From a virus (lineage: Duplodnaviria; Heunggongvirae; Uroviricota; Caudoviricetes): a stretch of 47,091 nucleotides of DNA. This document shows positions 46,909-47,091 of this stretch, piece by piece (position 1 is the first letter of the stretch; every line of letters starts with the position of its first letter). The notes below the pieces were generated by a model, which was given only the letters and a program-made list of their open reading frames with translations, made no database searches and was not told where the DNA came from. The translations under genes were made by a program, and so were the position numbers. Where the stretch lies: IMG/VR virus record IMGVR_UViG_2541047918_000004. The stretch is one strand, 5' to 3'.

Positions 46909-46998
46909 CTTGTAATCAAGCCTGTAAGATTTAAGCCATGAGTTCGCCAGTTCGGTAATTTCCGGCTCAACAGATTTTACAGACTTTCTTGATTTACT

Positions 46999-47091
46999 GC
47001 TGGTCGCTGGTCGCTGGTCGCTGGTCGCTGGTCGCTGGTCGCTGGTCGCTGGTCGCTGGTCGCTGGTCGCTGGTCGCTGGTCGCTGGTCGC
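46999..47091. repeat. Heptanucleotide simple-sequence repeat (GCTGGTC)n, 13 or more copies, continuing past the window edge
   Basis: Read directly: 93 nt of perfect 7-bp repeats to the last base of the window. On the minus strand it lies in the open frame upstream of the RM gene and contains no stop codon in any frame. Confidence 0.95.

Follow-up and report, generated by a model that had tools for sequence, protein, structure and literature searches.

A tandem array of the heptanucleotide GACCAGC lies in the first codons of a prophage-borne restriction-modification (RM) gene of Escherichia coli, where it probably forms a slipped-strand translational switch of a BcgI-like enzyme, a reading to which we give a probability of about 75% from sequence evidence. 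The array was analyzed in a 47,091-nt stretch of Caudoviricetes DNA (IMG/VR record IMGVR_UViG_2541047918_000004), referred to here as the window, and in related genomes. A first-pass annotation of the window had proposed a phase-variation switch at its end; this interpretation is supported in silico, each check that was run having come out in its favor. Sequence features expected of a contingency locus were found in silico: a unit whose length is not a multiple of three, a position near the start, polymorphism, early stops in the off frames and a conserved open reading frame (ORF).

The features of the window on which the argument draws are the following.

46999-47091, minus strand: heptanucleotide tract (GACCAGC)n, 13.3 copies visible, start codons outside the window.
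46909-46998, minus strand: first 30 unique codons after the tract, SSKSRKSVKSVEPEITELANSWLKSYRLDYK, the conserved N-terminus of the enzyme family, omitted by the TTG start of PGAP at 46908.
44947-46998, minus strand: fused restriction endonuclease/N6-adenine methyltransferase, A subunit, 683 codons after the tract (predicted).
~46759-46824, minus strand: PD...EYK nuclease motif, from the translation (RPDVKLL...IEYK, near the N-terminus).
45529-45540, minus strand: NPPY N6-adenine methyltransferase motif, from the translation.
43793-44887, minus strand: specificity (S/B) subunit gene with two target-recognition domains (PF01420 in two stretches; Type II specificity subunit in PADLOC).

At positions 46999-47091 TRF reported an array of period 7 with the consensus GCTGGTC, 13.3 copies long and without a mismatch (100% matches, score 186). 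It is by far the top-scoring repeat of the whole window and cannot be a chance match. As the first-pass annotation had described, it runs to the window edge, where it is truncated; on the gene strand (minus) the unit reads GACCAGC. That annotation had placed the feature at 46909-47091. The repeat is real and does extend to 47091, but it begins at 46999, the segment 46909-46998 being a 90-nt unique linker that contains no repeat and 46909 marking the end of the TTG ORF. Translation of the minus strand from 47091 gave (ATSDQRP)n, the product that had been predicted, followed by SSKSRKSVKSVEPEITELANSWLKSYRLDYK and a 653-codon ORF, and was stop-free down to 44947, confirming that the tract and the following 90 nt are open and in frame with the gene. 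The two remaining minus-strand frames stop right past the tract (after ...DQQ and ...VNQESL), whereas (GACCAGC)n itself contains no stop or NTG codon in any frame and encodes (DQRPATS)n whichever frame is read. The TTG at 46908 lacks a Shine-Dalgarno sequence and the earliest in-frame ATG is codon 108 of the TTG ORF, in agreement with the earlier observation that this start has no ribosome-binding site and is followed by no in-frame ATG for about 100 codons. Further tandem repeats reported by TRF in the window were at 24871-24974 (48-nt unit, 2.2 copies, 83% matches) and 37552-37604 (12-nt unit GATTTCATGATC, 4.4 copies, 87% matches).

The gene was present in 30 of 5,426 complete E. coli genomes, chromosomal each time, and in phage PhiR12_3 (ECOR13). 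Loci from 27 of the complete E. coli genomes, together with that of PhiR12_3, were analyzed (28 loci). Extending the sequence upstream in these relatives placed ATGs immediately 5′ of the tract: every full-length copy reads ...CATAAAAGGATGATTTTATGCTGCCA(GACCAGC)n, and the corresponding mRNA reads ...AAAAGGATGATTTTATGCTGCCA(GACCAGC)n, then the conserved N-terminus. The tract is preceded by two ATGs that differ in frame. An AAGGA Shine-Dalgarno sequence is found at the ideal distance of 7 nt upstream of ATG2 (ATGCTGCCA), and the order from this codon onward is ATG-CTG-CCA, (GACCAGC)n and the conserved N-terminus. ATG1, 8 nt upstream of ATG2, abuts the AAGG of the Shine-Dalgarno sequence and is probably a poor initiator because it directly adjoins it. 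The interval between tract and gene in the related genomes contains no stop, promoter or canonical start, and there is no ATG, GTG or TTG among the 30 codons after the tract. A scan between hok and the ATGs found no sigma-70-like promoter or terminator, the only promoter being a pR′-like one after Q.

The reading frame that joins these ATGs to the enzyme was computed for the 28 loci as a function of the copy number n. ATG2 shares the frame of the enzyme if n mod 3 = 0, and ATG1 does so if n mod 3 = 1; if n mod 3 = 2, both ATG frames terminate 0-27 nt past the tract. The first-pass annotation had expected that each gain or loss of a unit would shift the frame and turn the gene ON or OFF. The frame rule upholds the shift in silico, but with the two ATGs in two frames a switch of three states, not two, is probable.

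In the proposed mechanism, replication slippage (slipped-strand mispairing) would add or remove 7-nt units at a high rate, and a lysogen population and its phage progeny would each be a mix of high, low and off states. With ATG2 strong and ATG1 weak, strengths that are judged from Shine-Dalgarno spacing alone, three expression levels would result. At the N-terminus of the in-frame product there would be 37-280 residues of (DQRPATS)n, a tail that the enzyme presumably tolerates. Restriction and modification would switch jointly, since nuclease and methylase are one polypeptide, and a state with restriction only would thereby be avoided.

Translation must run through the tract, because repeat-free homologues begin just before the residues that follow it. 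These homologues (~72% identical; Neisseria, Providencia and Methylophilaceae, with plasmid copies in Arsenophonus and Acinetobacter that likewise lack the repeat) comprise 677-689 residues and begin M-x(2-17)-S-[VI]-E-P-x-[IV]-A-D-[LM]-x-N-G-W-L.... Their ATG lies 2-18 codons ahead of the SVEP/SIEP motif, and in E. coli the same motif follows the tract. Upstream of the TTG annotated by PGAP there are about 20 conserved residues, some of them invariant: the alignment shows no variation at S, E, P, L, N, W, L, S, L and Y between the tract and this codon, which itself encodes the conserved Leu of DYKL. When the post-tract stretch of the window was compared with that of the E7-1N7 allele, 32 nucleotides differed across 47 codons, yet only 11 amino acids did. 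The proposal that the real start lies upstream of or within the repeat is borne out by these homologue starts and by the ATGs directly 5′ of the tract.

PGAP placed the start at the TTG or at a later ATG in 26 of the 27 fetched genomes. The exception was 04-00955, whose tract is short (16 copies) and in frame, and this was the only locus in which the PGAP coding sequence spans the tract. The annotated TTG (the later ATG in a second allele family) is best read as a gene-caller artefact of an out-of-frame tract, because repeat-free homologues start a few residues before the post-tract sequence. On the opposite strand, an antisense ORF encoding (AGRWSLV)n runs through the tract and was named by PGAP 'YXWGXW repeat-containing protein' or hypothetical protein (locus L002, 3446-4012, minus strand; also L004-L007, L011, L012, L015, L166, L170, L176 and L177). 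Its length merely follows that of the tract, the (AGRWSLV)n protein matched no NCBIfam family at E ≤ 0.01, and it is very probably a spurious gene call.

The ORF had been described as an RM nuclease/methyltransferase, and the PD...EYK and NPPY motifs and the PADLOC Type IIG profile agree with this. The REase_MTase_IIG profile of PADLOC matched with E = 1.9e-232 over profile positions 15-717 of 721, beginning at residue 10 of the enzyme; Pfam returned N6_Mtase (PF02384) and a weak VRR_NUC match below the cut-off. An N-terminal PD-(D/E)XK nuclease and a gamma-class N6-adenine methylase (NPPY) are present on a single polypeptide, and a separate two-domain specificity subunit adjoins the enzyme gene, with no HsdR-type motor subunit. 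Assignment to Type I, suggested by the PGAP name 'HsdM family', was rejected: the locus contains no hsdR, its neighbors being hok, tRNAs and an esterase; nuclease and methylase are fused; and TIGR00497, the equivalog model for Type I hsdM, scored only 36 bits against a cut-off of 242.75. A locus of Staphylococcus aureus phage phi-42 is 28% identical over residues 14-676 (97% of the length), the gene in another staphylococcal phage relative carries the label bcgIA, and PhiR12_3, the single E. coli phage record with the gene, is annotated as BcgI alpha chain-like. We file the system as a putative BcgI-like Type IIB/IIG two-gene RM system, not Type I, because of the PADLOC and Pfam profiles, the separate S subunit, the lack of hsdR and the likeness to the phi-42 system, which we take to be Sau42I. 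A search of the PDB by sequence with the enzyme gave no match. Foldseek with an AlphaFold model (shallow alignment, mean pLDDT 57) gave HsdM structures and, over 638 columns and nearly the full length, BsaXI (PDB 8w0p); the N-terminus of this model is free, with low confidence at residues 1-6.

The adjoining specificity gene was annotated by PGAP as a pseudogene plus fragment in E2855 (L001, 6096-7208) and as intact in 2013C-3250 (L002, 6123-7208), the region corresponding to window 43793-44905. A second switch in this gene was considered and rejected; the split is an inconsistency of annotation, because the split E2855 and the intact 2013C-3250 copies differ from the window at identical positions. 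In SCU-104 the specificity gene contains a mid-gene 24-nt insertion, ATATAGAAGAGCTGGAAGCGGCCC, ~488 nt into the region aligned to window 44960-43700, a position that could change the spacer length of the recognition site. A mid-gene change in the specificity gene alters the recognition spacer length in EcoR124I/II.

Copy numbers were taken from the assemblies and ranged across the 28 loci from 16 to 120 (≤840 bp), complete tracts thus being much longer than the 13 copies contained in the window. The 22 perfect tracts contained 16, 23, 31, 50, 54, 56, 58, 64, 64, 65, 66, 76, 79, 80, 82, 83 (four loci), 89, 99 and 120 copies, most tracts falling in the range of 50-99 and not near the minimum. 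Imperfect tracts, which made up 6 of the 28, contained 6-nt units, one 10-nt unit or a long poly-C run and look like long-read consensus errors. The repeat number is thus far from invariant across related genomes, one of the checks that bear on the first-pass proposal, and a comparison restricted to identical flanks gave the same answer: nine loci with 0 differences over 3.8 kb (800 nt upstream and 3,000 nt downstream) had eight lengths, from 31 to 83 copies. In a further example, strains G1/2, G6/7 and G8, which have identical flanks, contained ~93, 83 and 99 copies, respectively. The tract mutates much faster than point mutations accumulate in the flanks, because identical flanks bear different lengths. 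It may nevertheless be more stable than the spread between strains suggests, since exactly 83 copies (an off phase) were found in four carriers, PhiR12_3/ECOR13, G6/7, O111:H8 7-32 9A and UCPROB-002, whose backgrounds differ; the chance of such a four-way tie is ~0.02 by a rough estimate, and a preferred length, recent shared descent of the phage or coincidence could each account for it.

Among the 28 loci, 7 were in the ATG2 phase, 9 in the ATG1 phase and 12 off (chi-square against uniform, p = 0.5), and the strong-start (ATG2) frame, found in only 4 of the 22 perfect tracts, was not enriched. The presence of all three phases is what is expected of a freely switching locus, and it is equally expected if the frame is irrelevant. 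As the phase counts cannot settle between these two, the case rests on the homologue starts and on selection.

The post-tract ORF was intact (681-683 codons) at 28 of 28 loci whatever the phase, including the 12 out-of-frame loci, and comprised 13 alleles. Between two close allele families dN/dS was 0.21, and against the E7-1N7 allele it was 0.05 at dS 1.48. In E7-1N7 the 5′ flank has diverged, yet both ATGs and 64 perfect copies of GACCAGC are kept. As judged from these comparisons, the gene is apparently kept functional by purifying selection despite frequent off phases.

In the fetched loci the gene is carried by a lambdoid prophage, with the Q antiterminator and hok on one side and the late genes on the other; this position is the slot of the stx genes and lies downstream of a pR′-like promoter that follows Q. 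In 2013C-3033 the RM-S module lies immediately upstream of stx1c (stxA1c; L010, 5735 onward). IMG/VR prophage contigs had a matching arrangement, with short-read contigs typically terminating inside the tract. Two Salmonella enterica contigs carry a gene that is 86% identical, and the contig start coincides with the position of the tract (L178 and L164, 1-40). One of them opens with ACCAGC, the last bases of one unit, followed by AAATTAAGAAAGG; the start of L178 reads ACCAGC and then AAATTAAG.... On Salmonella contig L164 the downstream genes are ICE-type conjugation genes, and for this reason the Salmonella module may ride on an integrative conjugative element. Separately, an IS1A element lies between the RM and S genes of 2015C-3121 (L176, 3661-4358). 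The com and mom genes (adenine methylcarbamoylation) lie upstream of ninG on the lambdoid prophage of E2855 (L001, 827-1718) and in L002 (596-1487), forming a second DNA-modification function on a prophage that carries the RM gene.

The same heptamer was found in an unrelated gene. In Pectobacterium carotovorum DSM 30168 (NZ_FQWI01000003.1), the gene for an EcoRI-family adenine methyltransferase (L053, 6520-7662; PF13651, E = 1e-130, residues 51-372) begins with ATG-TCG followed by 17 perfect copies of GACCAGC, in frame. Homologues of this methylase comprise 337 residues and are repeat-free, and the NCBI protein begins after the tract. This tract was seen in one genome; that a methyltransferase family unrelated to the E. 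coli enzyme, in another genus, has this heptamer in the equivalent place points to convergence or to transfer of a 5′ cassette. A scan of a genome collection with (GACCAGC)4 yielded, among the matches listed, mostly high-GC genomes that are unrelated, with mainly non-coding arrays, and among these matches Pectobacterium was the only parallel case. Repeats of this heptamer are common in several high-GC genomes, and the Planctomycetota MAG maxbin.317 has >20 contigs with (GACCAGC)n arrays (L045, L049, L057, L058, L062, L064 and others). Another phage group in IMG/VR (L036, 5155-5241; L023; L028) has (GACCAGC)9-12 followed by (ACCAGC)4, a tract that is seemingly intergenic and has no convincing ORF running through it. 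It is conceivable, if rather doubtful, that 'ATG + (GACCAGC)n' is a recurrent and possibly portable methyltransferase switch cassette of Enterobacterales, with 50-120 copies giving three-state lysogen cultures and phage bursts. If it were, lambdoid prophages, Stx1c-converting ones included, would gain a restriction barrier that serves as bet-hedging and, possibly, a phasevarion carried on a phage, and OFF-to-ON events might trigger self-restriction and SOS-dependent prophage induction.

Besides the even phase counts, the shared length of 83 copies and the reliance on assembled copy numbers, three properties of the locus count against the switch: its tract lengths are far above those of characterized switches, the enzyme might function less well with a tail of as many as 280 residues, and the scan found no sigma-70-like promoter between hok and the ATGs. 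The extreme lengths also fit a neutral runaway VNTR, that is, a selfish or accidental expansion on a gene that is being lost, with a frame that has no adaptive role. The uniform phases, with 4 of 22 perfect tracts in the strong-start frame, and the occurrence of (GACCAGC)n between genes in other phages and in many high-GC genomes are consistent with this explanation. It is nonetheless unlikely, because the ORF is intact at all 28 loci (13 alleles, dN/dS 0.05-0.2) and because the tract, its exact post-ATG position and the ATGs have been kept at dS ~1.5 beside a diverged 5′ flank; the unrelated Pectobacterium methyltransferase gene, with an identical heptamer at an identical position, also argues against it. 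That the tract is instead a 5′ leader, the enzyme being made constitutively from the TTG within the ORF (or from some other start past the tract) and the length of the tract doing no more than tune transcription or the mRNA, would agree with the PGAP starts in 26 of 27 genomes. Heptanucleotide repeats that act at the transcript level are known from Haemophilus influenzae hmw1A and hmw2A, in which 7-bp repeats in the promoter/5′ UTR grade transcription or mRNA processing (PMC8262952, PMC12721329); the locus resembles these in its variable-copy heptanucleotide and differs in that the E. coli tract is inside the reading frame. We consider a leader quite unlikely, since the TTG has no Shine-Dalgarno sequence and is an internal conserved Leu upstream of which the homologues start, a start at the later ATG would drop the PD...EYK nuclease motif, and the leader plus tract RNA folds no more stably than shuffled sequences (z = +1.2).

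The length of the tail could itself be the signal, a (DQRPATS)n peptide of 37-280 residues tuning activity, stability, oligomerization or localization, which would complement a frame switch. Every frame gives a stop-free, disordered peptide rich in Pro, Ser, Thr and Gln, copies cluster at 50-99 and not at the minimum, and the N-terminus of the model is free, with residues 1-6 at low confidence (pLDDT 57 model). Repeat-free homologues manage without such a peptide, however, and we regard this role as very unlikely; a protein-database search with (DQRPATS)9 gave only seven short matches and was uninformative because of low-complexity scoring. It is highly improbable that the tract serves as a Chi-like array, in which many weak sites would modulate RecBCD near a restriction gene. 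The plus strand of the window at 46999-47091 does repeat GCTGGTCG, a 7/8 match to Chi (GCTGGTGG), and the estimated chance that a random heptamer repeat agrees with Chi at seven or more of the eight positions on one strand or the other is ~0.5%, but PMC8022716 merely lists this variant among 24 one-off variants, the orientation, inferred from gene order, is opposite to RecBCD entry from a lambda-type right end, and the exact placement after the ATGs is left unexplained. An artefact of assembly or sequencing might be suspected from the six assemblies with obvious in-tract errors and from the short-read contigs that break at the tract. That suspicion is already refuted by the perfect, in-register tract in 22 independent complete assemblies from many laboratories, to which the genome of an isolated phage and the window itself add further examples. 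A translational switch remains the reading that we prefer.

Contingency loci built on simple sequence repeats (SSRs) are a textbook trait of host-adapted pathogens with small genomes (for example Haemophilus, Neisseria, Helicobacter and Campylobacter), and to our knowledge E. coli is usually cited as lacking them. Slipped-strand ON/OFF methyltransferases include the Type III mod phasevarions of Haemophilus, Neisseria and Helicobacter and cj0031 of Campylobacter jejuni, a Type IIG gene with a poly-G tract; the locus would share their switch logic, which may have epigenetic consequences, and differs in repeat type, host and phage location. In the LPS biosynthesis gene lic1A of H. influenzae, several ATGs in different frames lie upstream of (CAAT)n. 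The two ATGs in two frames before the heptamer tract resemble this arrangement and would give strong, weak or off states according to copies modulo 3, in an RM gene with a heptamer rather than an LPS gene with a tetranucleotide. Among Type I hsdM genes, tracts of ACAGC[10-40] in Mannheimia haemolytica and CGAGA[3-10] in H. influenzae have been listed (Atack et al., 2019; PMC7383803). The locus is like these hsdM genes in having a unit that is not a multiple of three in the 5′ coding part of an N6-adenine methyltransferase, strain-variable and with the frame deciding expression; it is unlike them in its 7-nt unit (against 5) and its up to 120 copies, a several-fold greater length, and also in its E. 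coli/Salmonella host, its lambdoid prophage, its fused Type IIB/IIG nuclease-methylase and the joint switching that would follow. E. coli is absent from the main text of that survey (PMC7383803). With BcgI, BsaXI (PDB 8w0p) and the phi-42 enzyme, the system shares an A subunit with N-terminal PD-(D/E)XK and NPPY motifs and a separate S-like subunit. Like the phi-42 system it is prophage-borne. Neither a heptamer tract nor phase variation is known to us from the BcgI, BsaXI and phi-42 enzymes. The literature that was searched in full text contained no published description of the locus or of a heptamer switch in an E. coli phage. The switch logic is already known; what sets the locus apart is the host, the lambdoid carrier at the stx slot, the enzyme class, the 7-nt unit and the length of up to 840 bp.

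The hypervariable heptamer, on whose copy number the reading frame of the RM enzyme depends, was found in lambdoid prophages of commensal E. coli as well as of STEC and EPEC. In practical terms, the start is misplaced by PGAP, a spurious antisense protein is called and short-read assemblies break at the tract, while its copy number is a potential high-resolution typing marker. If the switch works, clonal lysogens would vary from cell to cell in phage defence, in the uptake of foreign DNA and in adenine methylation, and their phage progeny would vary in being modified.
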